A DNA stretch of 57,505 nucleotides, counting the filler, from Jimgerdemannia flammicorona (lineage: Eukaryota): NCBI GenBank assembly GCA_003990765.1. It is 2 parts of 2 records of this genome, joined end to end, with 100 filler letters (N's around TTAATTAATTAA, not from the genome) between each part and the next. Parts side by side here need not be neighbours in the genome. Positions count along the whole stretch, not along the records: positions 28,812 to 57,505 come from RBNJ01000545.1; 1 more part is not named here. One strand, written 5' to 3'. Below are positions 24,001-50,590 of this stretch, one piece after another. The position numbers were made by a program, and so were the translations under genes. The notes under the pieces were generated by a model. It had not been told where the DNA came from and ran no database searches. It worked only from the letters and a program-made list of their open reading frames with translations. Numbering within the stretch: position 1 is the first letter of the stretch; every line of letters starts with the position of its first letter.

Positions 24001-26395
24001 AGATGCCACCAACTTCATGGAAGCCCTAGACCCTACAGAAAGAAGAGAAATCAACTATCTCCAAGACCCCTCTACTGGAGCCAGATGGCCACACCTCAAC
24101 CTCAGAGCCTGGAGGCTCTCTGCTAGTAGAGCTTTAGCTCAAGGATCGCCTGAACTCAGCAAAGATATTGCCCAGTATGCCCTGCTACATCCTAAGGCCA
24201 AACCCCCAACCAAAGCTCACCTGGAAGATATATGATATGATCTTCACAGTCTGGAGGATGAATCCATCAAGTCTGGAAAACATTCATGATTAGAACTGGA
24301 CTAGCCATACAGCCACCCCAAGGAACTTACATCCAACTGACCTCAAGGTCTAGACTTGCCAGATAAGGAATAACTATAGAAGAAGGAATCATCGATTCAG
24401 AATATACAAGTAAAATCAAGGTCATCTTACACAACAGTAGTACAGAATATTACTGAATCATTAGAGAACAGAAGATTGCCCAAGCAGTCTTCATGAATGT
24501 CAAGAACATACAATTATAAGAAGTTCCCAAACTGATTGAAGGAACAAGACAAGCCAAAGTATTTGGAAGTTCAGATAAGAAGGAAGTACATCTCCTTCAA
24601 CTCAACCATCTCAAGAGGAATGTTCTCCAGCAAGTATACTACCAACTAGTCAAACTGCACAAGAATCTCATTCTAGAGCCTAGAGAGCAAACCACCTTTA
24701 ATATCTTTATATCACCTGACTTCATAAATCTCTTCTTCAAACTCAATAAAGATATCCCATACCTGGATATAGAAGAATATACATTTCTCAATAAGATGAA
24801 TCCAGTATACTCCCAAGCAACCAACCAAAGTTGGGAGACTATCATCTTGCCAAAAGGAACTATCATAGGACATCTGGTGCCTTTTCTCAACTGAACTTAT
24901 AGAGAAGTTTATAAACTAAACTTATCAGGAAATGGCAAAAGGTTCTAGAAGAAAGAAAAGGCCCCTCTGCAATCCAGGAGACAGTGAAGTCTTCTACTAA
25001 CATTGAAGAAGAATTGATACCTCAGTAATGACAACAACTAGTAGAACTCTTCAACAAATATTAAGATATCTTCACTACTGATTATAGCAACCTACTATAT
25101 AACCCATCATATCACTACAGCATATATATAGGAAATGTAATGCCCATCTAATAGAAACTCTATAGAATACCCCATTACCTAAAGACATTCAAAAAGGAGT
25201 ACATTCAAGAACTCTTAGACAATAGAGTCATCTGACCCTCAACTAGCCCCTGGGCCAGTCCTATACTTATTGTACCAAGGAAAAGAGGATAGAGACTCTA
25301 CATTGATTACAGAAAACTCAATTCAGTCACTGAAAAGGATGCCTATCCTTTGCCAAGAATCAATGACCTCTTGGATCAGTTACAAGATACTAGATACTTC
25401 AGTAGTATGGACCCTTTTATAGAATTCTATGAGATTTTCATAAATCTAAAAGACATTCAGAAGATGGCCTTTCTTGCCCTAGGAAAACTGTTTAAATACC
25501 TCTGAATACCCTTTGGACTTTGCAATACACCTCCCACCTTCCAGAAAATGATGAATTTGGTCTATGCCCCTCTGATCTACCACTGTCTGATTGTATACAT
25601 AGATGATTCCAATATCTATTCAGCAAATTTCAGAGAACAACTGCACTATCTAAAAGAATTCTTCAAGCTCACCCACCAGAACCACCTGAGACTCAATGCT
25701 AAGAAATACTACTTTGGGAAACAGAAACTTGAATTCCTTAGATTCATAGTTTTGAATGAAGGAATCCATACAGACCCAAAGAAAACTGAGAAGATCAACA
25801 ATTAGTCAGTACCCAATACCCCACCAAAAAACCTATCATTTCTGATGTTAGTGTCCTACTACAGAAGGTTTATTAAGAACTTTGCCCAAATCACTGCCTC
25901 AATTCGGATTCTTCTCAAGAAATAAGTGCCATACAAATAGATAGAATCACAAGAGAAAGCCTTCAAAGAACTCAAGAACTGCATGACCACAGCACTAATC
26001 TTGTGCACCCCAATCTACAGAAGCCATTCATCTTATACATAGATGCTTCCAAAGATAGCCTAGGAGCAGTTCTAGCCTAAGAAGGATCTAATCAATAATA
26101 CCATATGATAGCTTATATAAACTAAGCTACCAATCAGCAGCAGATGAACTATGGTAACACCAAACTAGAATGTCTTGCAGTTATATAGATGGTCACTTTG
26201 TTTAAGTATTACCTTATTGGAAAAAGGTTCACTCTAATCACAGACCATGCAGTACTCAAATGGCTATTCAACTATAAGGAACCTACTGAAATCCTAGCCT
26301 ACTGGATCCTTATCCTTTAGGATTACAAAATCACCATTATTCACAAAGTAGAAAAAGCTCACAACAATATTGATGTACTTTCCCACCAGCTCTAA
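21023..26395 (+). pseudogene. C polyprotein gag-PR-long Cys/acidic insert-dUTPase-RT-RNase H
   Basis: EDPREFLDGIE capsid-like start; ILIDIGVAICI protease; RT and RNase H motifs; ends HNNIDVLSHQL*. Confidence 0.85.
24185..24575 (+). pseudogene. dUTPase domain of family C
   Basis: LHPKAKPPTKAH..YDL..RTGLAIQPPQGTYIQLTSRS.LA..GIIDSEYTSKIKVILHN..KIAQ..RQAKVFGSS. Confidence 0.88.
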
Positions 26396-27473
26396 TGAAC
26401 CAGAAAAAGAGTGTCCCAAGGAACTATACCCTGAAAGAAGCTTCTCAGACTACCAAGGCACAAGAAGATCTCATCTGGAAAGAATATCAGAAAGCTTATC
26501 AAGAACAGATGAGTATAGAAAAAAAGCTGCAAACAATATACCAACATTGGCCCAATCTCAGAATATAAGTTCAGGACATACTCAAGAAGTGTGATATCTG
26601 CCAGAAGTACCAAGGAAGAAAGAACTGCCAAGTACTACTGCAACTGATTGCACTACCAGATAACATCTTTCAGAGATAGGAAGTAGATGTAATTGGACCC
26701 CTACCAGTTATATCAAGAAGAAAAAAGTATATCCTTGTATTTGTAGAACATCTGACTAAGTGGCCTGAGGCTTTTCCAATGAAAATTACAGATGCCTTAA
26801 CTATTGTAGGCCTTCTCTATGGATTCACACTCAGATATAAATCCCCAGAAGAACTCATCTCTGACCAAGGCACAGAATTCATCAATAATATAATTATAAG
26901 TTATGTTCAAATTCACAAGATCCACCTTAAATAGACCACATTATACTACCCTCAGACCAATGGTATGATAGAAAGAATGAACCAGACCATTAAGAAAGAA
27001 CTTATCTGAGTTAATTCTATCAACTGGAACCTCTGCTTATTAGAGATTCTATGGGAAATTCAAAACACTCCTGCTACTTCCACTAAACAAAAGTCATTCA
27101 AAATAATATTTGCCAAGAAAACCAGAACTGCTGATCATGAGAATCTCAGAGATCTCCTCAAGAAGGCAGAATAGTTATATAATTAAGCCTGAGCTCAGAT
27201 TATCAAAGCTCAGGAAAGACAAAGAAGTACTATGACCAGAAGCAGAAGGATCAGGAGATCAAGATTGGAGATCAAGTTCTAGTTTGGAGAAGTATGATCA
27301 AAACAAACTTTGCTGCCAAATTGAAGCTCAAATGGGAAGGACCTTATCTTGTATATAATATCAAAGGAACCAGCATTTATTTAAGAAGTATGGATGGACA
27401 ATCTCTGAGGACACCAGTATACATCAATTATCTCAAGATATACCTCTTCCCATATCATGAATCAGAGAGTTAA
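26395..27473 (+). pseudogene. C integrase as a separate ORF starting at a TAATG stop/start overlap
   Basis: ATG 26395 reads in frame into WPNLRI.VQDILKKCDICQKY; VDVIGPLP, SDQGTEF, YYPQTNGMIER and KWEGPY follow. Confidence 0.87.
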
Positions 27474-27971
27474 CAACTACCTTCAGACTCTTATCCTCAG
27501 TTTATTTCAATCACTGCCAGTTCCCCTACCCCAATTCTAAGAAGTCAATGGAAATATCCTCTAGAAAATTCAGATTCATTAAGAGAATCTTGTTCTGATC
27601 AGACAATGTTACAGGTCCATCAACTTCAAGCCTATTATACAATCAGAGAATAATTGCAGAACCTTTCAGCCCCAGAACAAATATACATCAGAAATACTAC
27701 AGGACTATCAAGGAGAGATATCACTACTGCAGACAGGCTCCACACCCTTTATAAACAAAACCCTGTAGCTCTGATACAAGCACAATTCTCCTGGTGTGAT
27801 GTATAAGAAATGAACCTAGACATCTACCTAAGCATTATTAATGCTGTTGAAATTCTATTCCCAGAAGAAGAAGAAGAACCCCTGGAATAGAGTAACCATG
27901 GTATAGATGATGAGGATGATAGAATGAGTATTGATGCAGAAGTTGCTTATTCATACTGGGATGATGACTAA
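27457..27971 (+). pseudogene. C accessory ORF3, homologue of A ORF3 with an acidic tail
   Basis: QLQAYYTIRE.L...LSRRDITTADRLHTLYKQNPVAL aligns by eye with A ORF3 EFQEYFKLGQVL...LSHSQITIAKRIHKLFREDQVAI; one frameshift near 27600. Confidence 0.7.
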
Positions 27972-28139
27972 AGGACAGTCTGAGGACAGACCATCCTTTA
28001 GTGGGGGCTGATGTGACAAACCAAAATGTACCACCCAAATTATAACTTAGTCAGATAATATGAACACATATATAGCATCATAACCAGACAAAGCAACTAT
28101 TCCTACAGAAAACTGTATAAATAGCCAGACTACCAGATA

Positions 28140-28208
28140 AGGTACACTTGTGCTGAACCAGCACATCTATGCTGAACTAGCACACCTGTACTGAACCAGC
28201 ACACTTGT
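28140..28208. repeat. 19-bp tandem palindromic repeats in the C LTR U3 (also ~19431-19512)
   Basis: Unit cagcacacctgtgctgaac containing CAGCACA-cc-TGTGCTG, ~3.6 copies. Confidence 0.85.
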
Positions 28209-28711
28209 CATAGATAGCAATCTATAATTAGCAATATAGTAACCAGATAGCAACCACAACTATATAAAATACCCCAGAGATAAGAGTGAATAAACCTCAG
28301 TCTGAATTGAAGTACAAACCAAAGAAGCCTCTAAAGATTGAACATTGGTCTCCTTATTCCCACTCTGGTCCACTTTCTGATACAAAGCCTTGGTTTGCTT
28401 GCCAGATAAGCCTGAAGATTTGCTGCCAAAGTTCAAGGAAGAACTTCACTGCCTTTTGAAGAGAAATCTGCCACTTAAGGAATAAGCCATTATGTTTTTG
28501 ATTTGCTTGCCAGATAAGCCTAAAGAAGTCCGAGTTAACCTTGCCACAAAGCCAGTCTGTTGACGCAACTCCGTAGTGAACTTGTTCATGCAAACAAAGC
28601 CAGTCTTGATGTAACTTTGCCCAAGAAGCCTGCCAATTCAGGAAGAGTCCGCAATATCCGAGTTATTCGTCCATTCCCAGTGAACCCAATTGTCTTTTTT
28701 TTTTTTTTTTT

Positions 28712-28811: not shown

Positions 28812-29283
28812 TCCTATCTGTGACGGCCATCTCCCCTCCCATCCCGACATCACCCGAAAAGCAGTCACCTACGCCAGAACCGCGCTCGCCGGGAAGCTCG
28901 CCAAAGCCAGAGGGCCCCACCACAGGCACCGAGGACCTACAGGTAACCTACACTGAGCACTTGACGCCCAAGGTCGGCCGACTCCCTACGTAGCCCGAGA
29001 CATACCGAGACAGCACCTTGTTGACGACGGCAAAAGGAAGAAGGCGCCGCACCAAAACGGATATACTCCAGACGCAGCCGAAGACACCAGAAACCACGAA
29101 AAAGTGGAGAAGACACCGATCGGACACCGATAAAGGGGCAACTCATCACCATTGCCCTCCTCCCACCATGCCCATGCAGGCACAGCAAACCAACCCGAGG
29201 TAGAGGGGGTAATAATAGGGGAAAGGGGACTCGGAAGGTAGCCTACCAAACCTTGTGACTGGTAAGGTAGCGGAGAAAGGAGC
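28812..29283 (-). mobile_element. SINE-like element, 5' half (CpG-rich, young copy)
   Basis: Near-identical to 31820-32293 and to the reverse complement of 56390-56860. Confidence 0.9.
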
Positions 29284-30344: not shown

Positions 30345-33300
30345 TATAAGAGGATTACTTGTTAAAGTATCATTATATAGTTCTGAAAGAGTTTTCTGGA
30401 AGTTCTAAATATTCTGGAAGACTGTTTTCTTAAGATCAAGATCAATTATATATAGAGTATATCCTCTATACTTATTGATTTCAAAATCAGATTGATGTCT
30501 CAACTAAAATTCTTTTTTGAACTTGTTCTGAATATTCAGAATTTTCTATATTTCAGAAAGTTTAAAAAACTAAGACTAGCTTAGTTGAATTGGCATATTG
30601 CTGCAGACAATATCCAATTAGGAAATTTCATAACATAGTTAGGAATAGGACTTAACAGAGTGTAGATTTACTTAAGAGTAGTTTGTGGGTTATTAAATAG
30701 GTTTATTTACTATTTATGATATTGCTATACTAGGAGTAGTATATAAAGAGATATTATGGAGAAGTATTCAAGAGTTATTATGTATTCAGATTGTTTAAGT
30801 CTATCTTTCTGAGATCTGGAGGAGAGGGTTTTTATACTAATGAGGGGCTATCTGGACTATACTAAATATAGATATAATACTTAGTACCTTGCTGAGTCAG
30901 AATGCAGTTATATAGTACAAGTGTGAATTGATATATCAAGAGATCATCTGACTGCTGAGTCAGTATACAGTTATATTATATAAGACTAATCTAACTATAC
31001 TAATAACTGCTAAGCTACATATCTATAGATTTAAATACTATCTGGGTAGTCTTTGATGACATCACTATTGATGATATTATCTCTAATAAAGTAGTTATCT
31101 TTTTTTTTTATTTTTTTTATTTTAACGGACTCATGTCCTGCGGATTTTTATTGAAAGGGAACCTAGACTATATAGGCCAAAACTCTCCCCCACCACCCAC
31201 CAAGCACTGCCCCCCTATTAACCTAGGCTAGCTATTGTCCAGTAGCTTGACCATACCAGGCGCAGCAGGGCTGATAAGCCCACACCTCATTCTGTGCACC
31301 ATGCTCTCCCTACTACCAGGGGAAACCCAACCATACACCAATGACCAAAAGCGCATGTCTGAGAACCCAATGTATGTACAAGGCCACACCCGAGCTGAAT
31401 AGAATAGCCCCTGCCACCCCAAAGAGAATGACAGGCAAATAAAAAACCCTCATCAAAGCACAATACGGTGGGTAGGGCCTGGTTCTCCCAGTTGAGGTGA
31501 GTAAAGGACTTATACATGAGGTGGGAGGAAACCCCCAATACCCCACTACTCAAGCCTGTGGACTTTGATCACATTGCCGTGTCAGCTCCTAGTTTCAGTT
31601 GAGTACAGCCAAGATGCCTGAAATGGGTAGCCTCGGGCCTCCTGACTCCCCCTGATGACTGGGGCCCAACCCCACTGATCGCCAAAAGAAGCCAATAGTG
31701 ATACCTACCACCTAACTGTGCCGTACCAATCAAAAGGCCCCACCAAAGCAGCACCTGCCCCAGCCCCAATGACCACCCCCAGCCTGGCACCCTACTGGTT
31801 CACCGTAATTGCCCTTCTGCCTATCTGTGACGGCCATCTCCCCTCCCATTCTGACAACACCTGAAAAGCAGTCACCTACGCCAGAACCATGCTTACCAGG
31901 AAGCTCGCCAAAGCCAGAGGGTCCCACCACAGGCACCGAGGACCTGCAGGTAACCTATACTGAGCACTTGACACCCAAGGTCAGCCGACTCCCTATGTAG
32001 CCTGAGACACACTGAGACAACTCCTTGTTGGTGACGGCAAAAGGAAGAAGGCACTGCACCAAAATGGGTACACCCCAGACACAGCTGAAGGCACCAGAAT
32101 CCGCGAAAAAGTGGAGGAAGCACTGATCTGACACCGATAAAGGGACAACTCATCACCATTACCCTCCTCCCACCATGCCCCTGCAGGCACAGCAAACCAA
32201 CCCAAGGTAGAGGGGGTAATATTAGGGGAAAGGGGACTCGGAAGATCACCTACCAAACCTTGTGACTGGTAAGGTAGCAGAGAAAGGGGGCCACTAATAA
32301 AGTAGTTATCTAGAAAGAGTGATTCTTGGATTACTTCTCTCTATTCACTTAGGTAATAATACATTGGGACTAAATCACTATCTTATAGGATAGCATCATC
32401 TGTTTTATATATTAGATAAGATATCAGTAGATAGAGAAGGGGTACATTATCTTCACTTTCATCCAATTCACTATCTATATATCTTCTATAGGTAACAGCA
32501 CTATGAGTTGTAGGATTGTAGTATGCTGATAGTTATGGCTTGTTTTGTATAGGTAGAATTGTTGGTTCGATCTTAAGAATTATCTAGAGGTATAGGTTAT
32601 ATTCTCTAGTTTCTTTATTATAGTTGAAGTAATTGGATATAAATGTAGGTTAGTACTTGTACTAGTAGTCATTATCTCAATAGGTCTTGTAGGTAGTTAT
32701 GAACTATTATAAGTTTATCAGCAAGGTTAGTAAAGTAATCAGAGCTGGCAGAGATCTTTAGCTGGAGATCATATTGATGTCAGAGAGATTGTTATCTTCT
32801 ACTTCATCATTATTGAACTAAATTATATCATAGATATCCTTTATAATATATTTAACTTGGAGTATTTATAGAATGTAATTATTAGAGTATAAAAAGATTT
32901 TGTCTATAGTTTGAATATACTTAATATACTTATAGTTGAGTTCTTATACCATATTATCAATTTGGCCATAGAACAGAGTAGCAATCATTTCAGTAATAAT
33001 AACTTAGAGATAGGAAATAAAGATACTATACTTATAAAAGAGTTCTTGATATTTATGAGTAATGAGTTTCTGGTATTAAGATATCTAAGTAATGTCTGTA
33101 TTATAGTAGTGTTCAATTATATCTTCTAGAAGGTAGTCAATCTGATAGTAGCTTGAGATTTATCTGATTCAGTAGACTTCACTGAGTATGTTCAGGACAT
33201 TTCATCAGGCTTCTATAAAGTAGAGAGATACCAGGCTATAGATATTTATGAGGAGCAGAGAAGGTATAGCTCAGTTGATAATAGTATTCCAAATGTCAGC

Positions 33301-33604
33301 ATGGATGTGGTTGTAGATCTCAGTGGTCATATTTGTATATATGTATATTTAAGAATTATAGTTATTTATTTAGTTTGTTATAGTTTTCATTTCAATATAT
33401 CTGAGTACTTAGTATATATATATTCAGTCTTAATTAGTGAGGTTTCATTTATATAAATCTTATATTCCATAACTTTGAGTTAACTTAGCTTTATATTCTA
33501 TAACTTTAGTTTGACTCAGCTTCATGATCTTGCATGTGATTTCTGGATTTGTTCTGAGAGTGATATGTGATTTTGATGGCTTGGAGGTTGTACATATACT
33601 TATA
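30345..33604 (-). mobile_element. Solo LTR of chromovirus family D (~2.05 kb plus inserted SINE)
   Basis: Termini tataag...cttata (decayed TGTAAG...CTTACA); flanks agtat/ggcat differ only by transitions; homologous to 51008-52870. Confidence 0.85.
31101..32293 (-). mobile_element. Full-length poly(A)-tailed SINE-like element
   Basis: 18-bp TSD ctaataaagtagttatct at 31083-31100 and 32294-32311; poly-T at left end. Confidence 0.93.
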
Positions 33605-34984: not shown

Positions 34985-36997
34985 TATAAGAGAATTTACT
35001 TTTTAGAGTAACTGTTATATAGTTCTGGAAGAGTTTTCTAGAAGTTTTGGATATTCTGGAAGACTGTTTTCTTAAGATTAAGATCAATTTCATATGGAGT
35101 ACATCCTCTATACTTATTAATTTCAAGATCAGATTGATGTCTCAACCAAAGTCCTTTCTCAGACTAGTTCTAGATATTCAGAATTTTCCATATTTCAGGA
35201 AGTTCAAGAAACTAAGACCAGCTTAGTTGAATTGGCATATTACTGCAGACAATACCCAATTAGGAAATTTTATGATGGAGTTAGGAGTGGGGCCTAATAG
35301 GGAGTGGATTTACTTAAGAGTAGTTTGTGAGTTATTAAATAGGTTTATTCACTATTCATGATATTGCTATACTAGAAGTAGTTATGTAAAGGGATATTGT
35401 GGAGAAGTATTCAGAAGTGTTCTTGTATGTTTGAGTCTATGATTCTGAGGTCTGGGGGAGGGGATATTTATACTAGTGAGGGGCTATCTGGACTATTGCT
35501 AAATATAGATGTAGTACTTAGTACCTTGCTGAGTCAGAATACAGTCATATAGTATAAGTGTGATCTGACATATCAAGAGATCATCTGACTGCTGAGTTAG
35601 TTCACAGTTATGTCATATAAGACTAATCTAGCTATACTATGACTGCTAAACTATTTATAGATTTAGATGCTGTCTGGGTAGTCTTCGATTACATCACTAT
35701 TGATAATATCATCTCTGATGAAGTAGTCATCTAGGAAGAGTGGTTTATAGATTACTTCTTCTTGTTCACTGAGATAATAATATATTGGAACTTTGTTACC
35801 ATCCCACAGGATAGCATCATCTGTCTCATATGCTGAATAAGGTATTAGTGGGCAAAGGAGGGGTGTATCATCTTTACTTTCATCAGATTCGCTATCTATA
35901 TATCTTTTATAGGTTACAGCATTATGAGTCATGGAGTTGTAGTAAGCTAGTAACTGTAGTTCATGTCACTTATACTCAGGTGGCAGGGTGGTTGGTTCGA
36001 TCTCAAGGGTTGTCTGAAGATACAAGTTGTATTCTCCAGTCTCTTCATTATAGTTAAAGTAATTGGGGATAAATGCAGGTTAGTACTCATACTAGTGGTC
36101 ATTGTCCCAATAGGTCTTATAAGTGGTTATGAACTGTTGTAAGTTCATTGACAAGGTTGGTGGAGTGATCGGGGTTAACAGAGATCCTTGACTTATGGTC
36201 ATGTCAGTATCAGAGAGATCATTGTCTTCTGCTTTGTCTTCATCAAATCGGATTATATCATAGATATCCTTTATTGTGTATCTGACTTGAGGCATTTGCA
36301 GAATATGGTCATCAGGGTGTAGAAAGGTTCTGTCTGTAGTCTGAACATACTTGAGGTACTTATGGTTGAGTTCTTATATCATGTCATCAATTTGGCCATA
36401 GAATAGGATAGCAACCATTTCAGCAGTAGTAACTTGGAGGTGGGGAATAAAGGTACTGTACTCATAAAAGAGTTCTCAATATTTATAGGCAATGAGTTTC
36501 TGGTATTGGGATATCTGAGTAATATCTGTATCATAGTAGTATTTGACTATATCTTCTAGAAAATGACCAATCTGGTAGTAGCTTGAGATTTGTCCGATTT
36601 AGTGGGTCTCGCTAAGCATATTCAGGGTGTTTTATCAGACTTCCACAAAGTAGAGAGGTGCTAAGCTATAGATATTTATAAGGGGCAGAAGGGGTGTGGC
36701 TCAGTTGATAATGGCATTCTAAATATTAGCATGGATGTGATTATAGATCTCAGTGGTCATGTTTGTATATGTTCAGAAGTTGTGATTATTGTTTATTTTA
36801 GTTCTCTGTTTTGATGTGTCTTGGTGCTCAGTATATATATATTTGATCTTGATTAGTAAGATTCTGTTTGTGTAAATCTTGTATTCTATGACTTCATATT
36901 GACTCAGCTTTGTGCACTGTGACTTCAGTTTGACTCAGCTTCATGATCTTGCAGATAATTTCCAGATTTGTTTGGAGGTCACATGTGATTTCAGTGG
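34985..36997 (-). mobile_element. Family D LTR lacking its first ~25 bp
   Basis: Colinear with 30345-33604 and the reverse complement of 51008-52870. Confidence 0.85.
35663..36760 (-). pseudogene. 365-codon ORF inside the U3 of the family D LTR; N-terminal part homologous to ORF3
   Basis: Single frame from ATG 36760 (MTTEIYNHIHANI) to TAA 35663 with no frameshift; internal stops look like transitions from TGG/CGA/CAA; includes ORF-track pieces 36092-36295 and 35663-35932. Confidence 0.78.
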
Positions 36998-36999
36998 CA

Positions 37000-37620
37000 G
37001 TCCTTGATTTGGCATATATCCAATACTCTTATATATTATATATCTCTAAAGTATTAATGATCCACTACTGAATTTTAGAGTTCTAATTATCTAATTTGAT
37101 TAGAGCTCTCTATTACTGCTCAATTTATATCATATCTATTTATATCTATTGGAGCCCAAATGGTTAATCTTTATTTTATCAAAAAACACAATGATTTTCT
37201 AGTTATAAATTGTCCAATACTTATATTTTGTAATAAATTCATAGTATATCTTCATATAATAAGGCAGCAAAGTGGTTTCATTTACTTTATATATACTTTG
37301 AGGCTGGTCTTTCAGAGTATTCATTTTATTATACTAAGGCTCACCTTTTTGCTACTTTTTTGAAGGACTTTTATAACTCTAATAGTATTATCTACTTTGC
37401 TAGTTATAACTTAGTAGACAATCTATACTTTATCCCAGACTGAAAACATAGCTAGACAACTACCTTTTGATAAAATAATATTATTACAATATGATATTTT
37501 TATACAGTTTATTATTATTATACTCATATTTATTTCTTTGGCAATCTTATATATAGATAAACTGGATTGTAGTGAGTAAATAATACAGTTATAAATGTTG
37601 ATAGAAAGCTTTTTTATTGC
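37000..37620 (-). pseudogene. Tc1/mariner transposase N-terminal remnant
   Basis: HTH-like LQSSLSIYKIAKEIN...KGSCL; KYKYWTI...VF.DKIKINHLGSN (from WT..DW..V.FSDETKINRLGSDG). Confidence 0.75.
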
Positions 37621-37671
37621 TTGAAAATAATGGCAAAACACTATAAAGTAGTAAAGAATATCTAAAATAAT

Positions 37672-37702
37672 CTGTTTAAAAAAAAAAAAAAAAAAAAAAA
37701 AA

Positions 37703-37736
<34 letters not shown>
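37672..37736 (+). mobile_element. Ultra-truncated TPRT insertion (ctgttt + poly-A)
   Basis: TSD tctaaaataat at 37661-37671 and 37737-37747; ctgtt matches the SINE 3' end gtctgtt-poly(A). Confidence 0.7.
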
Positions 37737-37739
<3 letters not shown>

Positions 37740-37890
37740 AAAATAATACTATAGTAAAAGTAGATAATTATAGCTCAACTCAATAGTATATAGTGTGACA
37801 GTACAGCCAAATTCAGAAGAAGGAAATAGGGAATAGACACTTGATCGCACCCATTCCAAAGTAGTATAGTATTATAGTTAGCAGTCCTCA

Positions 37891-37989
37891 ATTTCGACAT
37901 TGTCTGAATTCTTAGACATTATCCAAATCAAATACCCCAATTTAGTATAGCATTTAGATATTGTCCAAATGTTTCGACAAAGTCCAAAT
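37891..37989. promoter_or_regulatory. U3 array of four 19-bp palindromes (ATTTnGAC-N3-GTCnAAAT) in A2
   Basis: Units at 37891, 37910, 37952 and 37971, same spacing as the A1 array; repeated in the 3' LTR. Confidence 0.65.
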
Positions 37990-38364
37990 GACTCATTTAT
38001 TACTTAGCCACTCTCTCATAGCTAGCAAACTTGTATAAATAACCCAGTATCTTTGAGTAAATAAACCTCAGATCGAAATAGTTCAAAGCAAAGAGATAGC
38101 AAAGGAACTAATAAGTCTGCAGGCAGATACACTTCAAACTCACCCACCCTCCCCTACAACTTCAAGAGACTCTGCGAGAGTCAGAATGGTCAAGTTTTCA
38201 AGATACAGAAATCTGACGTACTTTCAAGAGTAAGCGTCCACTACATTACAACTTAGTGCCCATTGGCTGGTGATTCAAGACGAATCCCTCACTTTCAAGC
38301 TGAACAACGAACAACCACCACTATCCGAACAACCATACAAACCGAGCCCCAATACTCAGACAAG

Positions 38365-41300
38365 ATGGATATGAGACCGCCAGTATTCCATGGATATACC
38401 TCAGATGAATCAATCATCACCTTCATTGATGATTTTGAGCAGTATGCTGCTGTAAGGACTCTGACAGCAGCACAGCAAGTAGCCCTCATGCCCTTCAGCC
38501 TATGAGGCCCTGCAAGAGCAGTATTCACAGCCACAACCCATGCAGGAAATGATGCCGATGTTGTACTAACAGCACAGAAGACCTGGCTCTGAAACACATA
38601 TTATATAGATGAGATCAAGCAAGCCCTAAAGGATCAGCTCAACACAATGTGCCAAGGAATGAGTGAGGATCCAAACACATTCTATATCAGAATTCGATAT
38701 ATCAGATAATCCTTGCAAATTATGCTGCTGCTATCCGAGATCAAGTAGCTGAAGCAACCTTCATGAAAGGAGTCCATCCAGAAATAGCCATGGCCATCCG
38801 CTCATCACCAGTGATTCTGGATCTGCCACAGAAGGTCACCTATGCTCAGAGATACTGGATAGCCAGACACTCATAAGACCATACAATAGAAAGAGTTACA
38901 GGAGTCAGAATCGAGGCATCCAAGGCAACCAGTGTGATCCCCACCACAATGATCAATCGAAACACACCTCAGCCAAAAGCTACAGAGCAGCAAAAGAACA
39001 GTAACCCTATGGAGAAACTTGCCAAAAGGTTTGCTGAAATGACTGCCCACCTGGGAGATGTGGTAAAGGAAATCTGAGGAAGAGATCGCTGCCCTGTTCA
39101 GAAGTTTGCCGCCACCTCAGACAAGAAGAAAGGTACCTACTACAGCTGCGGAGAAGAAGGCCACTACTCCTATAAATGTATGAGTGAAACCAAACGCAAG
39201 GCTCAACCAAGCAATGCCACATGAAACAAGGAGCAGGTATAAGAGGGTTACTTTTTAGGGTAATCGTTACGTAGTTCTGGAAGGGTTTTCTGGATATTCT
39301 GGATGTTCTGGAAGACCGTTTTCTTATGGTCAAGATCAATTTCATATGGAGTACGTCCTCTACGCTTATTGATTTCAAGATCGGGTTGACGTCTCAACCA
39401 AAGTCCTTTTCCGGACTAGTTCTGGATGTTCAGGATGTTCCATATTTCAGGAAGTTCAAGAAACTAAGACCAGCTCAGTTGAATCGGCGTATCGCTGCAG
39501 ACAATACCCAATTAGGAAATTTCGTGACGGGGTTAGGAGTAGGACCTAACAGAGAGTGGATTTACTTAAGAGTGGTTTGTGGGTTATTAAATAGGTTTAT
39601 TCGCTATTCATGATATTGCTATACTAGGAGTATTTGTATGAAGGGATATTGTAGAGAAGTATTCAGGAATGTTCTTGTATGTTTTTGTCTGAGATTCTGA
39701 GGTCTGGAGGAGGGGGTATTTATACTAGTGAGGGGCTATCTGGACTATGCTGAATATGGATATAGCACTAAGTGCCTTGCTGAGTCGGAATGCAGTCACG
39801 TAGTACAAGTGTAATCTGACATGTCAAGAGATCGTCTGGCTGCTGAGTCAGTTCACAGTCATGTCGTACAAGGCTAATCTATCTATGCTATGACTGCTAG
39901 ACTATTTATAGATTTAGGCACTGTCTGGTTAGTCCTTGATGACATCACTATTGATGACATCATCACTGGCAAAGTCTGAGCAGTTTTCTGACATCATCAG
40001 TTTTCAAGATGTCGTCACGTCTATCTCTTGTAAGATTAAGGCTGTCCTTGGTGGTGGTGGTTGTACAAGGATAACAGGTCTTGGTTCTCTTTTTTTTTGG
40101 TCTGCTGGTGTATTTGCGAGGACTGGCCATTCTCGTCTAGGGCGAGGGCTCTCAATGTCGCGGCTGGGGGTTCGAACCTCTCAGAAATGATATTTTCTGT
40201 AATCCGAGGTAATTTCTAGTAGTAATATCTGTCACGTGGATGGCTTGAGATTGGTTTCGACGTTGTCAGCTTTCTTGAGTTCAGATGAAGCGTCCGTCAC
40301 TCTCCAACGGAGGTGATACAGATAAAGCGAACAGAGTTGTTCAAATGTATTTTACTTCTGCTAAGTAATGAGGTCTTGTATAGTCATGGTATATCTTGGT
40401 CTTGAGTTGATAAGTGCAGTTCGTGAACCTTTTGATGGGTGAGATAGGGTTCTTCTTATCTTGATTTGAGTTTGGTACTTTCAGTTTCTTTTGTAATAGT
40501 ACAGTACACCAAACTAGCTATAGCGGTTCAGAGTCAGTCTTATGGTTGTAGTACTTCTTCTAGTATTCTTGTATCTTGGCAGTGGGTTCTCGTGCTTGCT
40601 GGCGTATTTCGTGTAACCAGATGATCTCTTGTTTTGTAGTCTCGCATGTGGTTTCCAAATTAGTTCTGAGGATACCATGCGATTTTGGTGGCTTAGAGGT
40701 TGTACGCTTACAGCAGGCCAATACAATCACCTTTGAAGAAATCGGAGAATCTGATAAAGAGGAATGGGAGGCCTATCCTGCTCAGACCACTAAGAAGGAT
40801 GTTCGCAAAGAACCCTACAAGAGACCACCAGGAAGACCCAAGAAGAACTCAGTGGAAAAGCAGATGGAAACTGCCACAGAAAGTCAAGCCGAAGAGATGG
40901 ACCAGGATATCAAGCTGGAGCAAGCAGTTCAAGATATCATCCGAGGAACCACTCCAGCCAGTGAAGGAGAAAAAGAAAAGAAGCTTCACAAGACCAAGAC
41001 CTTCAAGTATGATATCTTCAAGGATCTCAGTCAACAAAAGGTCAATGCAACCTTTAGTCAGCTCGCAGAAATCCCAACATTCAGATAGCAAATGAGGTTT
41101 GGACTTGCCGAAACAACCAAGAAACAAGGATGGAAGATAACCGAGGCCAATAATGTTTAAGAGGACTCAGGAGAAGAAAGTGAGGACAATTGCAAAACCT
41201 CTACTTATGCAACATGCCAAATTGAGGATTGAGTCTTTGAAGCCATCATTGATACAGAAGCAGGAGGATGTCTCCTCAGTAAGAAGGCAGCAGACCGCCT

Positions 41301-43839
41301 AGGTTGGGATGTGGAAGAAGCAACCAAGCTAGTATTCATTACAGCTGATGGCACAAGAGCCACACCTCTGGGAAAGATCTGAGATGTTCCCATCAAGATT
41401 GGAGGAGCAACAATCCCAGTAGATATAATCGTAACCAATGCCACCAACTATGACATCCTCATCAGCAATCAATGGCTTCATAAAGCCAAGGCAGTAATCG
41501 ATCTCAATGCCCAGAAGATGCAAATCACCTACCAGGGACAGAAGATACGAATTCCCATCAACGTCAACAAAGGAGTCCTGCCCAATATGGAGGAAGAAGA
41601 GAGCGAGCAAGAGGAAGCTTATATGGTGACTACCCCAAAGAAGAAGAAAGTCAGATGGATGAGTGAAGAAGAATGGTGCAAGAAGATTGCAGAAGGCTAT
41701 ACCATACAAGGAGTCTGTCCTCATGGAATCAAGATGTACTGTATGGAGCATGTCAATGATTGCTACCAGTGCACCATCGGAACCAAGAAGATCTACTAGG
41801 AAAGAAGCCAGAAAGCTCTCGAAAAACAGATCAGGGAAGAAGAGAAGGAGGAAGATGATGAACCACCAGCCCTCCTGGAGGACAGTGATGATGAAGAAGA
41901 AATCAAGGTCAAGATTTGAAAGATCCACCCTGACGCAGTCTTGCCAGAATACAAGTCAGAAAATGCAGCCAGAATGGACATCACTACAGTAGAAGAAACT
42001 GTACTCGAACCCCAGACAACTACTCTACTCGCAACTGGACTAGAGATGACCATCCCAAAGGATCATGTCGGGATTCTCAAGACAAGAAGCAGCCTGGCTA
42101 GAAGTAAAATCACAATCGAAGGAGGAGTCATTGATTCAGACTATACTGGAGAAATTCTACTCATTGCTAGGAACCACAATCCTACAATTCCATTCCCAGT
42201 CAAGAAGAAGGACCGATTGGCACAGATGTTGATCTTCCCAATCATATAGCCAAGGATCATAGAAGTCAAGAATCTGGAGGAAATGAAAAGAGGAAAGAAA
42301 GGATTCAGATCCACAGGAAGAGGAGTATTCGCCAGCACCAAGATCACTGAACTCGAGCACAAGAAGGAGGAAAACACAAGCAAGCACAGTTACACCATTG
42401 GAGATGAATTCCCACTCAAGGAGGAACTCAAGAAAATACTCCACAAATTCGAGGATGTCCTCACCACAGATTTCAAGGATATTAAGGGAAAGACCCCACA
42501 CTACTATCACGAGGTAGATACTGGAGACACTGAACCAATTTATCAGAAGGCAAGACCTGTCCCGCCAGCCTACTGAGAATAACTCAGAGAAGAAATCAAG
42601 CAGATGGAAGAAGCCGGTATCATCAAAGAAGCCAGCAGCCCCTGGTCTTCACCAGTTGTACTAGCCCCAAAAAAAGGAAGCAAACCTGGAGAATTTGCTC
42701 CAAGGCTCTGTGTTGACTACAGAAAGCTCAATACAGTCACCAAGAAGGATCGCCAACCACTGCCACTCATCAGTGACATCCTTATAATACTGGGAGATGA
42801 AGCACAGTACTACAGCACCTTGGACTTATACTCAGAGTTCCACCAAATCAGACTCACAGAAGTGGCAAGTGAAAAGTCAGCCTTCATCACCCCAGATGGA
42901 ACCTACATCTACCTATGAATGCCATTCAGAATGTGCAATGCACCAGCAAGCTTTTAGCAAATGATGAACAAAATCTTCCGCTATAATATGGGAAGATGGA
43001 TGATGGTCTATGTTGATGATGTAATCATCTACAGCAAGATGGCCGAGGAACATCTGCAGCACATACAGCAGATAATGGAGAGACTAAGACAACATGGCCT
43101 TTATATCAAACCCAAGAAGTGCAAGTTTGCGGAAATCGAGATCTCCTATCTTGGCCATATCATCAATCGAGATGGAACACACACAGACCCCCTCAAAATA
43201 TAAGCAGTAGCAGCATACCCAAGGCCCACTACCATCACAGAAGCCCAAGCCTTCATGGGACTTGCCTCCTACTATCGCAGATTCATTAGAGGATTCTCCA
43301 ACATCGCAGGTCCAATCTACGAACTCAACAAGAAGGATACCAAGTTCCAGTGGACTGGCAGACAACAAAAAGTATTTGACAAACTCAAGGTCAGACTAAC
43401 TCAGGCACCCATCCTCAGACAGCCCAATTGGACCCAGGAATTTATCCTTCAGACAGATGCAAGTGCACAAGGACTAGGAGCAGTCCTAGCTCAAAAAGAA
43501 GATAAAAAAGAGTATGTCATTGCATATCTTAGCCACGGAACCCGAGGGGCTGAAAAAGAATATGAGTCCTACAAGTTGGAATGCCTTGCAGTCATCTGGG
43601 CTATAGAAAAGTTCCACTACTATCTGGCTAGAAGACACTTCACCATCCAGACAGACCACTCAGCTCTCACCTGGCTACTGACAACTGGATAACCCAAGGG
43701 AATCTATACCAGATGGATAATGAAGTTACAAGCCTATGATGTAACTATCGTACACTGCCCTGGAAGAACAAATTCCAATACAGATGCTCTCTCACAGACA
43801 CCTTGAACCACCTCCAACCAACAAATCAATCATGAATAA
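38365..43839 (+). pseudogene. A2 gag-PR-dUTPase-RT-RNase H polyprotein (interrupted 39238-40712)
   Basis: Same motifs as A1; VYVDDVII intact; dUTPase ~41900-42320 with GGVIDSDYTGEI. Confidence 0.93.
39238..40712 (-). mobile_element. Solo LTR, short variant of family D (1475 bp)
   Basis: Perfect 5-bp TSD GCAGG (39233-39237 and 40713-40717); termini tataag...cttaca; removing it restores the A1 sequence. Confidence 0.93.
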
Positions 43840-45017
43840 GGAGCTCTACTATGGAATTATCATATACCTGGGACAGCGAAAGATGCCCCAACATCTGGAA
43901 GAATAGACACAAATGATTATCAACAGGACATGGAAACAATTCGAAACTGATGGAGAAACACTGAAGAAAGGAAAACTACTAGTTATACCAGAACACAAGA
44001 AGGAGCAAGTGATGAAATCAGTACATGAACTTGGCCATCTAGGAGGAATGAATATATACGACAAGGCAAGAAGAACAATATAGTGGCCAGGGATGGAGGA
44101 AGATATCAGACAATTTGTCAAGACATGCGACAAATACCAGAAACAGAAACAAGACCAACAGAATCAAGCCCCAGGATCAGTACATATAGAACCAGTACCA
44201 TTTGCCCATATAGCAATGGATGTAATTGGCCCTCTACCCTTGACCCTGACTGGTAACCAATACATCATTGTCATCGTAGACCTTTTTATGAAGTGGATAG
44301 AAGCAGAACCCCTCAAGGAAGCCAATGCATAGTCAATCGCCGATTCTTCCACAAGGAAATCATCTGCCGGTTCAAGACTCCAACACAAGTAACTACAGAT
44401 AGAGGAACAGAATTCATGAACCAGCTCTTTGAGGTTCTCTATAAGAAGTACAAGATCCAGCACATTCAGACCACAGCCTATCACCCTCAAGGAAACGGAC
44501 AAGTAGAAAGGACTAACAAAACCCTCAAGAATGTTATCGCCAAGATCTGTGATAACTACGAGAACTGGGATCACTATCTGCCAATAGCATTATCTGGGAT
44601 ATCTGATCACAAAGCACCCACTTTACCCCTTGAGAAATGCTGTTCAGAGAAGAATATTCTCAAGGAACCCTATCATCCAATGGAGATACTGTATGGAAAC
44701 ATGTGGACATGGAAATATGGAGACTACACCAAATCAGAAAGAAGGCTGAGGATTATATAACCAAGGTACAGACACTACAATGGAGGAATGTGGAAAAGAC
44801 CCACAAGCCTTTGGAGATTATCAAGATAGGAGACAAAGTCCTAGTATATCGGAATATGGTAGAAGCTTTATGGTCACGAAAACTGGAGCCCAAGTGGGAA
44901 GGACCTTACTTTATGCAAGATATAAAAGAGACCACCTTTTGGCTACAAAAACCCTCAGGCACAATAATCCCTACCACCATTCACCAAAGCTGACTCAAGA
45001 AATATCATGGCCAGTAA
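43832..45017 (+). pseudogene. A2 integrase as a separate ORF
   Basis: Same CATGAATAA overlap and frame change as A1; DVIGP, TDRGTEF, YHPQGNGQVER, KWEGPY. Confidence 0.9.
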
Positions 45018-45468
45018 CAAAAGTACTGTGATGGCACTCAAGATCACTAGTGCTATCCAAAGAGCTATTGAAAGACAATGGTACACCACCGAGCCTCCGA
45101 CCATAGAGCCATACTATGAGGATATTCAGAGTATTGTGCAGACTCATCTCTCTCAGATCTTGCACTTTAGAGCCTATCAGTATTGTGCAGAATTCCAAGA
45201 GTACTTCAAGCTTGGACAGGTGCTCAATCAGGATCCAGTAAAGACCAAGGAGGACTGGATTGCCAAGTGTCAACTCTCTCACTCACAGATCACTATTGCC
45301 AAAAGGATCCACAAGTTATTCCGAGAAGATCAAGTAGCGATAGACCACCTGAGAGGAGTAACCCCTACCGACTTCGAGAAAGTGAGAAGACATTATTGGG
45401 AAACAGTCATGCAGCAAATTGCACAGTACAAGACCATATAGACTGTTGAAGCCTGGGAGTTTGAATAG
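45007..45468 (+). CDS. A2 accessory ORF3, unknown protein (144 aa open; 153 aa if TAG 45439 is reverted to CAG as in A1)
   Basis: ORF track 45007-45441; ATG overlaps the integrase stop; synonymous divergence from the A1 copy. Confidence 0.8.
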
Positions 45469-48400
45469 ATGCTTCAAGGATGAGACCATCTATTCAGGAG
45501 GAAGTTGTGATGGTACAGCCAAATTCGGAAGAAGGAAATAGGAAATAGACACTTGATCACACCCATCCCAAAGTAGTATAGCATTATAGTTAGCAGTCCT
45601 CGATTTCGACATTGTCTGAATTCTTAGATATTATCCAAATCGAATACCCCGATTTAGTATAGTATTTAGACATTGTCCAAATGTTTTAACAAAGTCCAAA
45701 TAACTCATTTATTACTTAGCCACCCTCTCATAGCTAGCAAACTTGTATAAATAACCCAGTATCTTTGAGTGAATAAACCTTAGATTGAAATAGTTCAAAG
45801 CAAAGAGATAGCAAAGGAACTAGTAAGTCTGCAGGCAGATATACTTCGAACTCACCCACCCTCCCCTACAACTTCAAGAGACTCTGCGAGAGTCAGAACG
45901 GTCAAGTTTTCAAGATACAGAAATCTGATGTACTTTCAAGAGTAAGTGTTCACTATATTACAATAGTAAATCCAAATAGGTTTGGATGGCCAAGAGAGTC
46001 AAAACTATAACAATAGCAATATAACTTAAAATATTATATTAATGTCTATATTTATCTAAATAAAATAAAAAATATATTATTCAAAAGCTAAGATACTATA
46101 TTATTAATAGTAAAAAATTGGATTTTATTATATTTATATTGAAGCTATAATATAATTATATATTAACAATAACTAAATATTATTATAGTTTTAATTGCTA
46201 CTATATATTTTGATTATAACTTACTTGGCTTTCTCAATATAATACTACTCCTAGCTCTGATCTTTGTGATATTGTAGCTTTAAGTATAGATTCAATATTG
46301 TTTTGAAAAAGAGGATGAGTTTTGTAGAAATTTCTCTTTTTTGGAAGAGGTAACTACTATATTAACATATCTATACTAATTGAGTATATAGTGGTATCTA
46401 TTTTGAAGTAGTATTTTCTAAGCTTACTCAGAGTAATCTTTACAGTATCTCTCTAATCTGAGCTAAACTGAAAATTATTACTACTCTCTAGTCTTTCCTC
46501 AAGCTTATTCTCTAGTTAATCAATTAAAAGATTATATACTAGTATTGTAGAGCTTATTTTTAGAGTAGTTTATTTGACTATATTTTTCATATAATTATCA
46601 AAATACTAGTAGTTAAAAATAATGAATTGTTATATTACTATATAGAGGCAGACAAAACAAATATAGAGCTAAAATAATCATTACTTACTTCTAAAACTCT
46701 AATAATATTCCTTAGTATATTTTACTTACTTTCATCTATAGTCTCACTCTGCATTTTTCTGTCAGCAATAACTATAGAATCTATTAGCTTTTTTTTTTTT
46801 TAAAAAAAAATATTCTATTTTAAAATTAATTAACAATTCTTCGTCATCCAAAACAATTTACTTCAGCCAATTGAAAAAAGAATATATACCATAGCAAACT
46901 CTAGTATATATTGAATTATTATAAATATTATATTTTAATATATATAAATATTTAATATCAGCTCTTTTGGAACTAAACTGATTGCCCTATACTGTGCAGT
47001 AAATTTATCTTATCATTGTAAAGATGATCAGACCAATATAACTAGTTTATACAGCTTGGAAACAATACTCAAGATTCATTTACTTCTGGATATTTTGTCT
47101 ATATATATAAGATAATTCTGAACTACAAGATTCAGTATATATGTAGATCTGATAATATATATAATAGTTTTCTATACTAAAGGCTATATTTTCCTATTGA
47201 AGATTAGCTACTAAATTTTGAGTTATTTATAGCATTATCTGTTATAATAGCCAAAATCTGTACTTGAAATTTTCAGTTAGCAAATTTATATAAAAATAAA
47301 TAATTATTAAAATCTATTTTATTTTAAAACTTTTCTCAAAATGCTAACCAGATAGCAAGCCATTCTTTTTACCTTAGTTGTAATCTCAAGCTCTCAGATA
47401 CAACTAATAAAAGCATCTGTAATATTTTCTCTATAGTTAAAATAAGAGAACTCTATAATTAATTGGGTAAACTATTCTCTGACTATCAAGAAAAAATATC
47501 ACAATTTCAAACTGCAAGGAGAAAAAGACTCACTCAGTTCTAGTGACCCAGGCTTAAAAATCACTTATCTCAACAAACTATAACTTAATAAATTAGCTAA
47601 AAAATATCCTCTCTTTGCTATCTCTATATGACTATCTAAAGGAGAATCCAAGAACTTTAAAAAAGACTTTTCCAAAGTTGACAGCTATATTAGACCATTA
47701 CTTTAGAAATTCTGAGATATATTTCTAAAGAAACTACCAAAAGGTCTACCATCCAAAAGAGCAATTGACCATGTAATCAAGACCATCCCAGATGCCAAGC
47801 TAGCCTTCAAGTCAATCTACTATATATCTTTTAGGAAAATTGATGTACTCAAGAAAGAAATTGATAAACTCCTAGAATAAAGATTCATTAGACCTAGTAT
47901 ATCATATAGTACATCAGTTCTCTTTATTGTCAAGAAAGAAAAAGACCTATAAATATATATTGACTACTGAGACCTCAATGAATAGACCATCAAGAACTAT
48001 TGTCTACTATCTCAAATTGATAAAATATTTAATAAGCTTATCAACTCACAATTCATAAACTCTTTTGACCTATGAAATAGCTACCAGCAAATTGCCATAA
48101 AAGAAGAAAATATCTACAAAACTGTCTTCTGAACTTGCTATGGATATTTCAAGTTCTTGGTTATATCTTTTAACTTAACTAATACTTCTATAATCTTTCA
48201 GATACTGATAAATATCATCCTATACCTATATCTAGATAAATTTGTTGTTGTTTATATTGATGACATTCTAGTCTTTATTAAAACCCTAGAGAAATATCTT
48301 GAACATCTTGAATTAGTACTACTGAAGCTTTGAGAAAACTAACTCTTTGTAAAACTCAGCAAATACAAATTTCTTCTAAAGGAAATTCAATTTCTTAGAT

Positions 48401-50422
48401 ATATTATTACTCCTAATAAAATCAAAGTAGATCTTAGTAAAATATCTATAATCAAGGAATAGCTCAGACTCAAGAAGTTGAAAGACCTCTAGTCATTTCT
48501 GAGACTAGTAAACTATTACTGACAATTTATTATAAACTTCACTAAGATTGCTACTGCCCTTACTCAAATAACTAAGCATAATAGAAAGAAAAATAGCCCT
48601 AGACTATAAACTAAGAAAAAGACTTCAACAATCTTATAAATTAGAGACCTGAATAAGATATAGCCTTTTAAGCCCTGAAAGATATCTTGATAACTACTCT
48701 AGTACTTTAAGTGACAAATTCTACCCTTCTATATAAAGTTACTACTGATGCCTCTGACCTAGTTTTTGGAACAATACTTATATAAGAAGAATATCCTGTA
48801 GTCTATTATTCTCATAAGTTCAATAATACTAAAATCAACTATATGACTTATAAGAAAGAAATATTAGCTATTATAGACACTCTGATCAAATTATGGCTAT
48901 ACTTTAAAGGAGCATACTTTACTATTTTGATAGACTACAAATCATTAGTCAATATTAAGACTCAGACTATCTTTTTCTGAAAGTAAGCCAGATAAATGAA
49001 AGTTCTCACCAATTTTGGTTATGAAATCTAATACTGCTCTGATAAGAAAAATATTATTACTAATATAATTTCCAGACCACTAATTGAAGAAGTTATACAA
49101 ACTCTCATCTTAATTAACTCTATTATATAACAAATCATTACAGTATATGCTAATGATAAGAAGCTCAAGCACTCCTGAGCAATGATAATATTAACAAATA
49201 CTCCTAGTATGTATCATCAATACTCTAACTGAAGGATAATACTATTTACTATAATAATAGATTGTATGTTTCTAATAATTAAGATCTCTAAAGGACTATT
49301 CTATTTAAATATTATGATATCCCTATAGCTGGATATCTAGAATTTAATAAATACTATGAAGTTATTTCCTGAAACTTCTATTGGTCATATATAGCAGATC
49401 AGCTAAAGACCTATATTACTTTTTATAATACCTGCCAATGCAATAAGTTCTCAATACTAATAAAACCTGACCTACTATATCCTATTCCAGTATCATCCAC
49501 TAATTGAGAACAAATCTCTATAGACTTCATTATACAACTATCCCAAACTAAGAATAGAAAAGATATAATTATTGTCTTCATAGATTATCTTAGCAAATAA
49601 GCCTACTTCATACTTACTGCTATAACTATAACAGTATCTGAAATTGCTATACTCTTATTTAACAACATCTTCTACTATTATGGTCTTTCTAAGATTATTA
49701 TTAGTAATCAAGATCTGAAATTCACCAGCTATTTTTGGAAAGCTCTATATACATACTTTGAGATGAAATTTATACTATCTATAGCCTTTCACTCTAAAAC
49801 TGATAGCCAAACTAAAAGGATAAACTGAACTCTAAAGTAAATATTAAGAAACTATATTCCTATAGATAAGATAATTAATATGAACACTTTACTATAATCA
49901 AGTTTATCTACAATAATAATAAATAAGCCTCTTTTGAAATTACTTTATTCTTTGTCAATATAGAGTAAAATCTATACACTTCTCTGACTCTTATTAGAAC
50001 TATTAATAAACTCTTCACTATTAAAGCCATTGAAGAATTTCTACTCTAAATATACAACTTAAGCCAGATTATAACTGAGAATTTATTTTGAGCTCAAGAA
50101 TAACAATTATAGTATATCAACTAGCACTATCAAGAAGAAACTTTTAATATTAGAGAAAAAGTTCTACTAGATATCCAAGGATATCAAGTTGATAACCTCA
50201 AGCACAGACCCTCTATAAAGCTGAATAGCAAATTCATTAGACTATTTGAAGTTATTGTATAAGTCTCTCTAACTTCTCACAAATTTATACTACTAGCTAT
50301 TATCAAGATTTATCCTATTTTTAATATCTAATGTTTTAAGTGATATAATAAAAATGATGATGAGCTATATATTTCTAAATTGAACTAAAAAACTACTAAT
50401 ATCTATCATTATTAATAATTAG

Positions 50423-50590
50423 GAAGAATACAAAGTTGAACAAATTCTCAATAAATATAGTTATAAGAAATATAGTTACAAGAAATATCCAGAATACCTT
50501 ATCAAATAGAAAGGTTATCTGATCTATGATGTAATATGGGAACCCAAAACCAACCTTCAGAATACTACTAACTTAGTATAAGAATATGAT
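50423..50590 (+). pseudogene. Integrase C-terminal chromodomain remnant
   Basis: EEYKVEQILNK...EYLIK*KGYLIYDVIWEPKTNLQN. Confidence 0.88.

Follow-up and report, generated by a model that had tools for sequence, protein, structure and literature searches.

A decayed 365-codon accessory gene that probably lies within the U3 of a Ty3/gypsy long terminal repeat in Jimgerdemannia flammicorona

Can a retrotransposon carry a whole protein-coding gene inside its long terminal repeat (LTR), an arrangement that to our knowledge is known, for a complete gene, only from a few retroviruses? The question is raised by a reading frame at positions 35663-36760 of a 57,505-nt stretch of Jimgerdemannia flammicorona DNA (assembly GCA_003990765.1; two parts joined by 100 filler letters, with positions 28,812 to 57,505 from RBNJ01000545.1), referred to below as the window, where a first-pass annotation had proposed a 365-codon gene embedded entirely in the unique 3′ portion (U3) of an LTR. 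We find that this frame is probably a mutationally destroyed accessory gene of ~365 codons lying wholly in the U3 of a ~2.05 kb Ty3/gypsy LTR, in sense orientation. The unit in question, one of a repeat family designated D, and its open reading frame (ORF) are as follows.

34985-37033, minus strand: D2, a full D-family LTR unit of 2049 bp with ends TATAAG...CTTATA and no matching target site duplication (TSD)
36760 (ATG) to 35663-35665 (TAA), minus strand: the ORF, a decayed accessory gene of 365 codons and a terminal TAA, which stays in register throughout but contains 10 internal stops

The frame has uninterrupted homologues. A HMMER search against 1.84 billion representative proteins, with which word-based searches agreed, returned two matches and no others. 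P0002 (128 aa, E 4.4e-53, 73% identity) covers residues 1-128 and shares with the window frame its starting Met (MTTEIYN), and P0001 (247 aa, E 3.6e-87, 60% identity to D2) covers residues 115-365 and shares the terminal YPDSI. The two lie on contigs of 998 and 1180 bp. A search for shorter proteins yielded P0002 only, and two metagenome scans and one viral scan detected no DNA of relatives.

Within the window, self-blastn and a four-copy alignment defined the D units. The three copies of a ~2 kb repeat with a frame that had been described earlier correspond to D1, D2 and D3, to which a fourth and ORF-less unit, D4, can be added:

32295-33604, minus strand: 5′ part of D1, holding most of the ORF, with 20 internal stops and a 9-nt in-frame deletion
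30345-31099, minus strand: 3′ part of D1, with the final 22 ORF codons and the TATA and AATAAA block; a fragment of a long interspersed nuclear element (LINE) divides D1
51008-52876, plus strand: D3, ORF-bearing, cut off on its 3′ side, with 18 internal stops and a 69-nt in-frame deletion
51274-52248, with the tail from 52427, plus strand: the D3 ORF, a 177-bp insertion resembling a miniature inverted-repeat transposable element (MITE) lying between the two parts
39238-40712, minus strand: D4, an ORF-less D-type solo LTR of 1475 bp, within the gypsy element A2

D1, D2 and D3 are roughly equally diverged from one another. What D4 shares with them is ~80 nt at its start and ~760 nt at its end, the latter taking in approximately the last 20 ORF codons; its central 664 bp is unrelated to D1-D3 and contains no long ORF.

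As described in the first-pass annotation, the frame runs through 365 codons of a single register with no frameshift, but it is not open, being interrupted in all three copies. The stops, 4 TAA, 4 TGA and 2 TAG in D2, coincide with a Trp, Arg or Gln of the intact proteins in 10 of 10 cases in D2, 19 of 20 in D1 and 16 of 18 in D3. The earlier proposal that some of them are sense codons in other copies holds, codon 223 being TAG in D2 (36092-36094) and TGG in D3 (~51940), and together with the residues of the intact homologues this supports a secondary origin of the stops. To compare copies and proteins codon by codon, a codon was taken as compatible when it matched the intact residue once reversal of C>T/G>A was allowed, with 200 shuffles per copy as a control. 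Compatible codons numbered 297 of 361 in D2, 290 of 340 in D1 and 282 of 335 in D3, whereas the shuffles averaged ~50 and never exceeded 69. With P0002 alone the values were 125, 124 and 121 of 128 for D2, D1 and D3, so that P0002 is in effect the undecayed N-terminus of the D-LTR gene family; with P0001 alone they were 186/247, 179/226 and 174/221 for the same copies (75-79%), and P0001 therefore represents a more distant lineage.

The number of stops in the D2 frame is by itself unusual only to a moderate degree, and is not decisive: the six frames of the ORF stretch contain 10, 22, 46, 14, 36 and 26 stops, 35 of 5000 mononucleotide shuffles had a frame with 10 or fewer, and in D1 and D3 the sense frame holds more stops than one antisense frame. 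What places the frame beyond chance is the existence of two intact homologous proteins and the lack of frameshifts, the only ORF indels across D1, D2 and D3, which are ~23% apart, being of 9 nt and 69 nt. Judged by these comparisons, the frame is a former gene. An alternative genetic code for the D2 frame was considered and ruled out, since TAG, TGA and TAA are all present in-frame.

The copies have diverged mainly in one manner. Pairwise comparisons of the ORF copies gave transition to transversion counts of 221:16, 216:41 and 186:17, and the LTR pairs of the two copies of element A, described further below, differ by transitions only (41/41 in A1, 28/28 in A2). At the 69 sites where D4 has C/G and D2 has T/A, the dinucleotide context was CpA/TpG in 27, CpG in 23, CpC/GpG in 16 and CpT/ApG in 3. 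We read the ORF copies in the window as dead and decaying neutrally by C>T/G>A hypermutation resembling repeat-induced point mutation. Transversion columns, which number 16, 8 and 21 at codon positions 1, 2 and 3, weakly suggest a faint trace of earlier constraint. The background at 1-6117, 12808-19307 and 46000-51000 has 21-30% G+C, compared with 37-47% in younger elements, and these stretches are probably older repeats decayed further under the same transition bias.

We then asked whether the repeated unit is an LTR. All four D units have the same two termini, TGTAAG or TATAAG at one end and CTTATA at the other, with unrelated flanks beyond them; in the sense orientation D4 starts with TGTAAG and the other units with TATAAG, a difference consisting of transitions only, and the termini are of the TG...CA type with a short inverted repeat. 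D4 is bounded by an exact 5-bp TSD, GCAGG, at 39233-39237 and 40713-40717, and the corresponding empty target site is kept in the paralogue A1 at 7565-7569; element A likewise makes 5-bp target duplications. The outer flanks of D1, AGTAT and GGCAT, have three identical positions and two transitions, a weak fit to a 5-bp duplication. On the plus strand, D3 is preceded by two further features:

50994-51006, plus strand: polypurine tract of 13 purines with GGGGAGAG at its end; a single base separates it from the D3 terminus
47800-49837, plus strand: relic of a reverse transcriptase (RT)-RNase H-integrase region, decayed and gypsy-type, ~1.17 kb upstream of D3 on the same strand

The junction between tract and terminus at D3 resembles that between tract and LTR in element A. 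The pol relic was detected by tblastn over 48220-49837 (E 1e-15 to 2e-7), and its RT-like start, from 47800, was read in translation, Pfam giving no match there. Pfam searches of the plus frames of 45966-48223 and 37034-37786 for a gag or protease of the D3 element returned nothing credible. Because of the shared termini, the exact TSD of D4 with its empty site, and the polypurine tract and pol relic of D3, we assign the unit as an LTR: the stretch 34985-37033 behaves as one, with the ORF in sense orientation between its termini. D1 and D2 were also considered as the LTR pair of one short element, and this was rejected, as they share no duplication, are separated by 1.38 kb of unrelated sequence and belong to three roughly equally diverged copies. 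Once A2 is subtracted, the interval between D2 and D3, which contains the pol relic, measures ~5.8 kb, the size of the internal region of A, and the 5′ (U3) ends of the two units face inward.

The position of the ORF relative to the parts of the LTR can be gauged from short motifs:

35652-35659, minus strand: first TATAAATA, 3 nt past the stop; D2 and D4 have TATAAATA, D1 and D3 TATAGATAG
35465-35472, minus strand: second TATAAATA, whose core GTATAAA is invariant in D1-D4, ~190 nt downstream of the first
35344-35349, minus strand: AATAAA, invariant in D1-D4, a candidate polyadenylation signal on the side of the repeat region (R) and the unique 5′ portion (U5)
36832-36937, minus strand: a block ahead of the ATG that resembles a promoter, retained in part by D1 and D3 and missing from D4

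The frame thus ends, as the first-pass annotation had it, just before a TATA-like motif (35659-35652), although the second TATA (35465-35472) appears from its conservation to be a better candidate for the LTR promoter than the one by the stop. The ORF is placed in U3 because the shared GTATAAA and AATAAA, present even in the ORF-less D4, lie downstream of it; from these motifs it is likely to be a U3 ORF. The promoter-like block contains TGAGTCA twice, 31 nt apart (36900-36906 and 36931-36937), a putative Gcn4/AP-1-type site, and a TATATATATA run at 36832-36842, ~75 nt before the ATG. It could drive an ORF-specific transcript that would end at the LTR poly(A) signal.

Two of the D copies carry insertions of their own. 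The 1195-bp fragment in D1 (31100-32294) begins with poly-T, is flanked by an exact 16-bp duplication (31084-31099 and 32295-32310) and has the appearance of a LINE 3′ end lying on the opposite strand. Relatives of this fragment occur at 53501-54693 and 56390-57505, with a 468-bp piece at 28813-29280, and a non-LTR RT-like motif is seen in translation near 54700-56390, between two of these copies. The 177-bp insertion in D3 (52250-52426) is AT-rich, has the terminal inverted repeats TAGTACT/AGTACTA and an 8-bp duplication (ACTTTATC and ACTTTATT), and looks like a MITE.

The product, as represented by the intact homologues, is predicted to consist of a helical N-domain of ~128 residues followed by a disordered, very acidic and Tyr/Pro-rich tail of ~240 residues. 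Its acidic and Tyr/Pro-rich character, noted at the outset, is evident from composition: P0001, which represents the C-terminal part, has a pI of 4.05, with 46 Asp/Glu and 10 Lys/Arg, 23 Tyr, 24 Pro and no Cys among its 247 residues. AlphaFold2, run with four sequences for each part, modelled the N-domain (P0002) as five helices at low confidence (pLDDT 52, pTM 0.41) and the C-part (P0001) at pLDDT 31, no residue exceeding 50. In ESM Atlas an entry identical to P0001 has a model of low quality (pLDDT 0.39, pTM 0.15) and no usable neighbours, and P0002 receives a score under the recognition bar with mixed hits. We interpret the low values of the C-part as disorder, with the reservation that the alignment comprised four sequences. 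A Foldseek comparison of the N-domain model with the PDB gave 0 matches at E <= 0.001, the model being too weak for this blank to count, and Pfam has no family for the window frame, P0001 or P0002. From composition and position one might guess, tentatively and with more doubt than confidence, at an element-encoded regulatory or adaptor protein that would work by contacting other proteins, much as an acidic transactivator does.

Several observations weigh against a U3-borne gene in the form proposed here. The LTR of the first-pass annotation finds agreement in the termini, the D4 TSD and the D3 tract and pol relic, but nowhere does the window contain a complete element in which a pair of ORF-bearing LTRs is accompanied by a primer-binding site and a matching duplication; D2 is flanked by CTCTC and TATTA, which do not constitute a target duplication, and D2 and D3 are mutually inverted. 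As to the earlier U3 claim, the ORF lies between LTR termini and upstream of the common GTATAAA and AATAAA, but the evidence is one of motifs, and the TATA that adjoins the stop, the one originally named, is not conserved in two of the four D copies. The D4 LTR moreover integrated with no ORF, so the gene was not needed in cis. Among columns bearing G/C, the transition-variable share is 0.61, 0.59 and 0.65 at codon positions 1, 2 and 3. With no codon-position bias, decay has been blind to the reading frame and the copies in the window bear no sign of selection; this lack of bias marks dead copies and is silent about the ancestral gene. Since the divergence of the copies amounts to transition hypermutation with no such bias, the ratio of nonsynonymous to synonymous substitution (dN/dS) among them is uninformative. 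There remains one stop of a different kind:

36374-36376, minus strand: codon 129, TAA in D1, D2 and D3 alike; P0002 ends at residue 128 and P0001 has Gln

P0002 is undamaged at its remaining vulnerable positions, yet terminates at 128. The comparison suggests that the TAA at codon 129 is probably older than the decay in the D1-D3 lineage, and the long frame of the window lineage may thus have been interrupted already before decay set in. It may reflect a split gene, read-through, or an inherited null allele of a gene dispensable in cis.

Codon 129 leads directly to the explanation in which the ORF is a passenger, a foreign or host cassette taken up once, copied passively and already null when the family spread. 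The TAA common to D1-D3, and implied by the end of P0002, would fit such a history, as would the normal integration of the ORF-less D4 variant and the fact that what D4 lacks is exactly the promoter-like block plus the ORF. P0001, however, 60% identical to D2, is open over 247 codons, has the same C-terminus and has Gln at 129, which points to maintenance in a second lineage, and no host homologue was found among the 1.84 billion representatives; we consider a passenger unlikely. Far less probable still, to the point that we set it aside, is the idea that an AT-rich repeat happens by chance to have a frame with few stops and no gene behind it. The 35 of 5000 shuffles with as few stops, and the D2 antisense frame with only 14, speak for this idea, but it is refuted by two intact homologues at E 1e-53 to 1e-87 and by stops located at Trp/Arg/Gln positions.

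The remaining alternatives accept the gene and move it within the element. Were the true LTR only ~740 bp (35724-34985), the ORF would be an internal 3′ accessory ORF between pol and the LTR, comparable to the accessory ORF that element A in the same window has between integrase and LTR, and all four copies do break near 35717-35732, D1 by the LINE fragment, D3 by the MITE-like insertion and D4 by a change of sequence. The D1 and D3 breaks are, however, independent insertions with their own 16-bp and 8-bp duplications, and the region upstream of the ORF stops at one terminus common to D1-D4, with unrelated flanks beyond, that adjoins the exact TSD in D4 and the polypurine tract in D3; an internal ORF is accordingly very unlikely. 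Nor do we favour, regarding it as quite improbable, an ORF situated in a very long R or leader, with element transcription starting at the TGAGTCA/TATA block so that the ORF would be the first cistron and be repeated at the 3′ end of the RNA. This would account for the presence, 75-175 nt ahead of the ATG, of the two TGAGTCA motifs and the TATATATATA run, which D1 and D3 retain in part, and for the variation among copies of the TATA by the stop, but D4 has no promoter-like block while GTATAAA and AATAAA downstream are invariant in D1-D4, and an R of ~1.5 kb would be far longer than any we know of.

If, as we consider probable, the gene lay wholly within U3, it would have been duplicated together with the LTR, U3 being copied to both ends in each round of reverse transcription, and would have stayed in solo LTRs. 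Expression might have come from the 3′ LTR part of element transcripts by splicing, in the manner of the retroviral sag gene discussed below, or, with use of the LTR poly(A) signal, from the promoter-like block that precedes the ATG. The ORF could have originated as a cassette captured into U3, or the polypurine tract may have moved upstream and so brought a 3′ accessory ORF into U3. A bolder version, in which each D LTR, even a solo one, is an autonomous cassette with its own promoter (the two TGAGTCA motifs and the TATA run), 365-codon ORF and poly(A) signal for an acidic regulator used by the retrotransposon, comparable to sag or the foamy-virus transactivator, and arose by the polypurine-tract shift, seems to us doubtful; if true, no earlier example would exist among fungal-type Ty3/gypsy elements. 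The earlier corollary that every solo LTR disperses a copy of the gene holds insofar as solo LTRs do carry it, D1 being probably one, but the ORF-bearing copies are dead and D4 is ORF-less.

Among known systems, the 3′ accessory genes nef of the human and simian immunodeficiency viruses (HIV/SIV) and bel2/bet of foamy viruses reach into the U3 of the 3′ LTR, and the foamy-virus 3′ region also encodes an acidic transactivator. These ORFs merely overlap U3, whereas the D ORF, its start included, lies wholly within the LTR, and there is no homology. Cassandra elements, which are terminal-repeat retrotransposons in miniature, have a 5S RNA gene in their LTRs; they resemble the D units in having a gene-like unit with its own promoter inside the LTR, spread with every LTR, but theirs is a host-derived RNA gene, whereas the D ORF is protein-coding and has no host relative. 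Closest in layout is the sag gene of mouse mammary tumour virus (MMTV), for which PMC3026287 describes access by splicing to an ORF located in the 3′ LTR. Here too a whole accessory ORF lies within the LTR and would be copied to both ends, and sag is read from the 3′ LTR; the element in the window differs in its host, which is probably a fungus, in being Ty3/gypsy with no env, in having dead copies, and in that a mode of expression can be put forward for it by inference only. The retroviral analogy drawn in the first-pass annotation therefore stands as to the layout of sag but not as to descent: neither sequence nor fold relates the product to Sag or Nef, Pfam being blank and the (weak) N-domain model having no structural match.

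Additional ORFs (aORFs) of plant LTR retrotransposons lie, according to the parts of PMC7264820 consulted, in the internal region, mostly between pol and the 3′ LTR, and "additional ORF with unknown function" is among the figure abbreviations of PMC2864245. Like the plant aORFs and the ORF3 of element A, the D ORF is lineage-specific, without an assigned function, in sense orientation and 3′ of pol; aORFs, however, are internal and occur once per element, whereas the D ORF lies past the polypurine tract, in the LTR. Full-text term searches brought up no case of an ORF within the LTR of a retrotransposon, although such a blank does not prove that there is none.

Should the layout hold in undecayed relatives, a retrotransposon U3 is able to house and disseminate an entire gene, solo LTRs can act as copies of a gene besides promoters, and the line between "simple" retrotransposons and "complex" retroviruses with their 3′ regulatory genes becomes less sharp. 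P0001 and P0002 are, among ~15 billion public proteins, the only members of the protein family that the ORF defines. For annotation, the locus is a warning that long LTRs may conceal coding sequence and that transition hypermutation can mask it.

The other elements of the window provide the setting of the D units. Element A, with copies A1 (6118-12807) and A2 (37787-45965), is a Ty3/gypsy element with 462-bp LTRs and, by Pfam, the order protease-dUTPase-RT-RNase H-integrase. Gypsy elements in which a dUTPase domain lies between protease and RT, as it does in element A, have been reported from fungi (PMC2864245). Between integrase and polypurine tract A has an ORF3, intact in A2 (45007-45441, 144 aa) and with stops in A1 (11846-12280); it has 8 public homologues at 62-76% identity, and Pfam assigns it to no family. 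The N-domain of the D ORF had been called ORF3-like, a likeness that we could not substantiate: tblastn of P0002 against the ORF3 of element A gave marginal E values of 0.019 and 0.29, and profile-profile comparison (hhalign) gave probabilities of 1.1% and 1.8%, in different segments and registers. Scans of the window for tRNAs and Rfam families gave no match. Directly left of the A2 insertion site is a long A-rich run (37700-37786), poly-Lys in translation. A third gypsy-type element, B (19308-28691), has LTRs of ~740 bp that are 77% identical (19308-20044 and 28012-28691) and, on the plus strand, a pol relic at 24286-27398.

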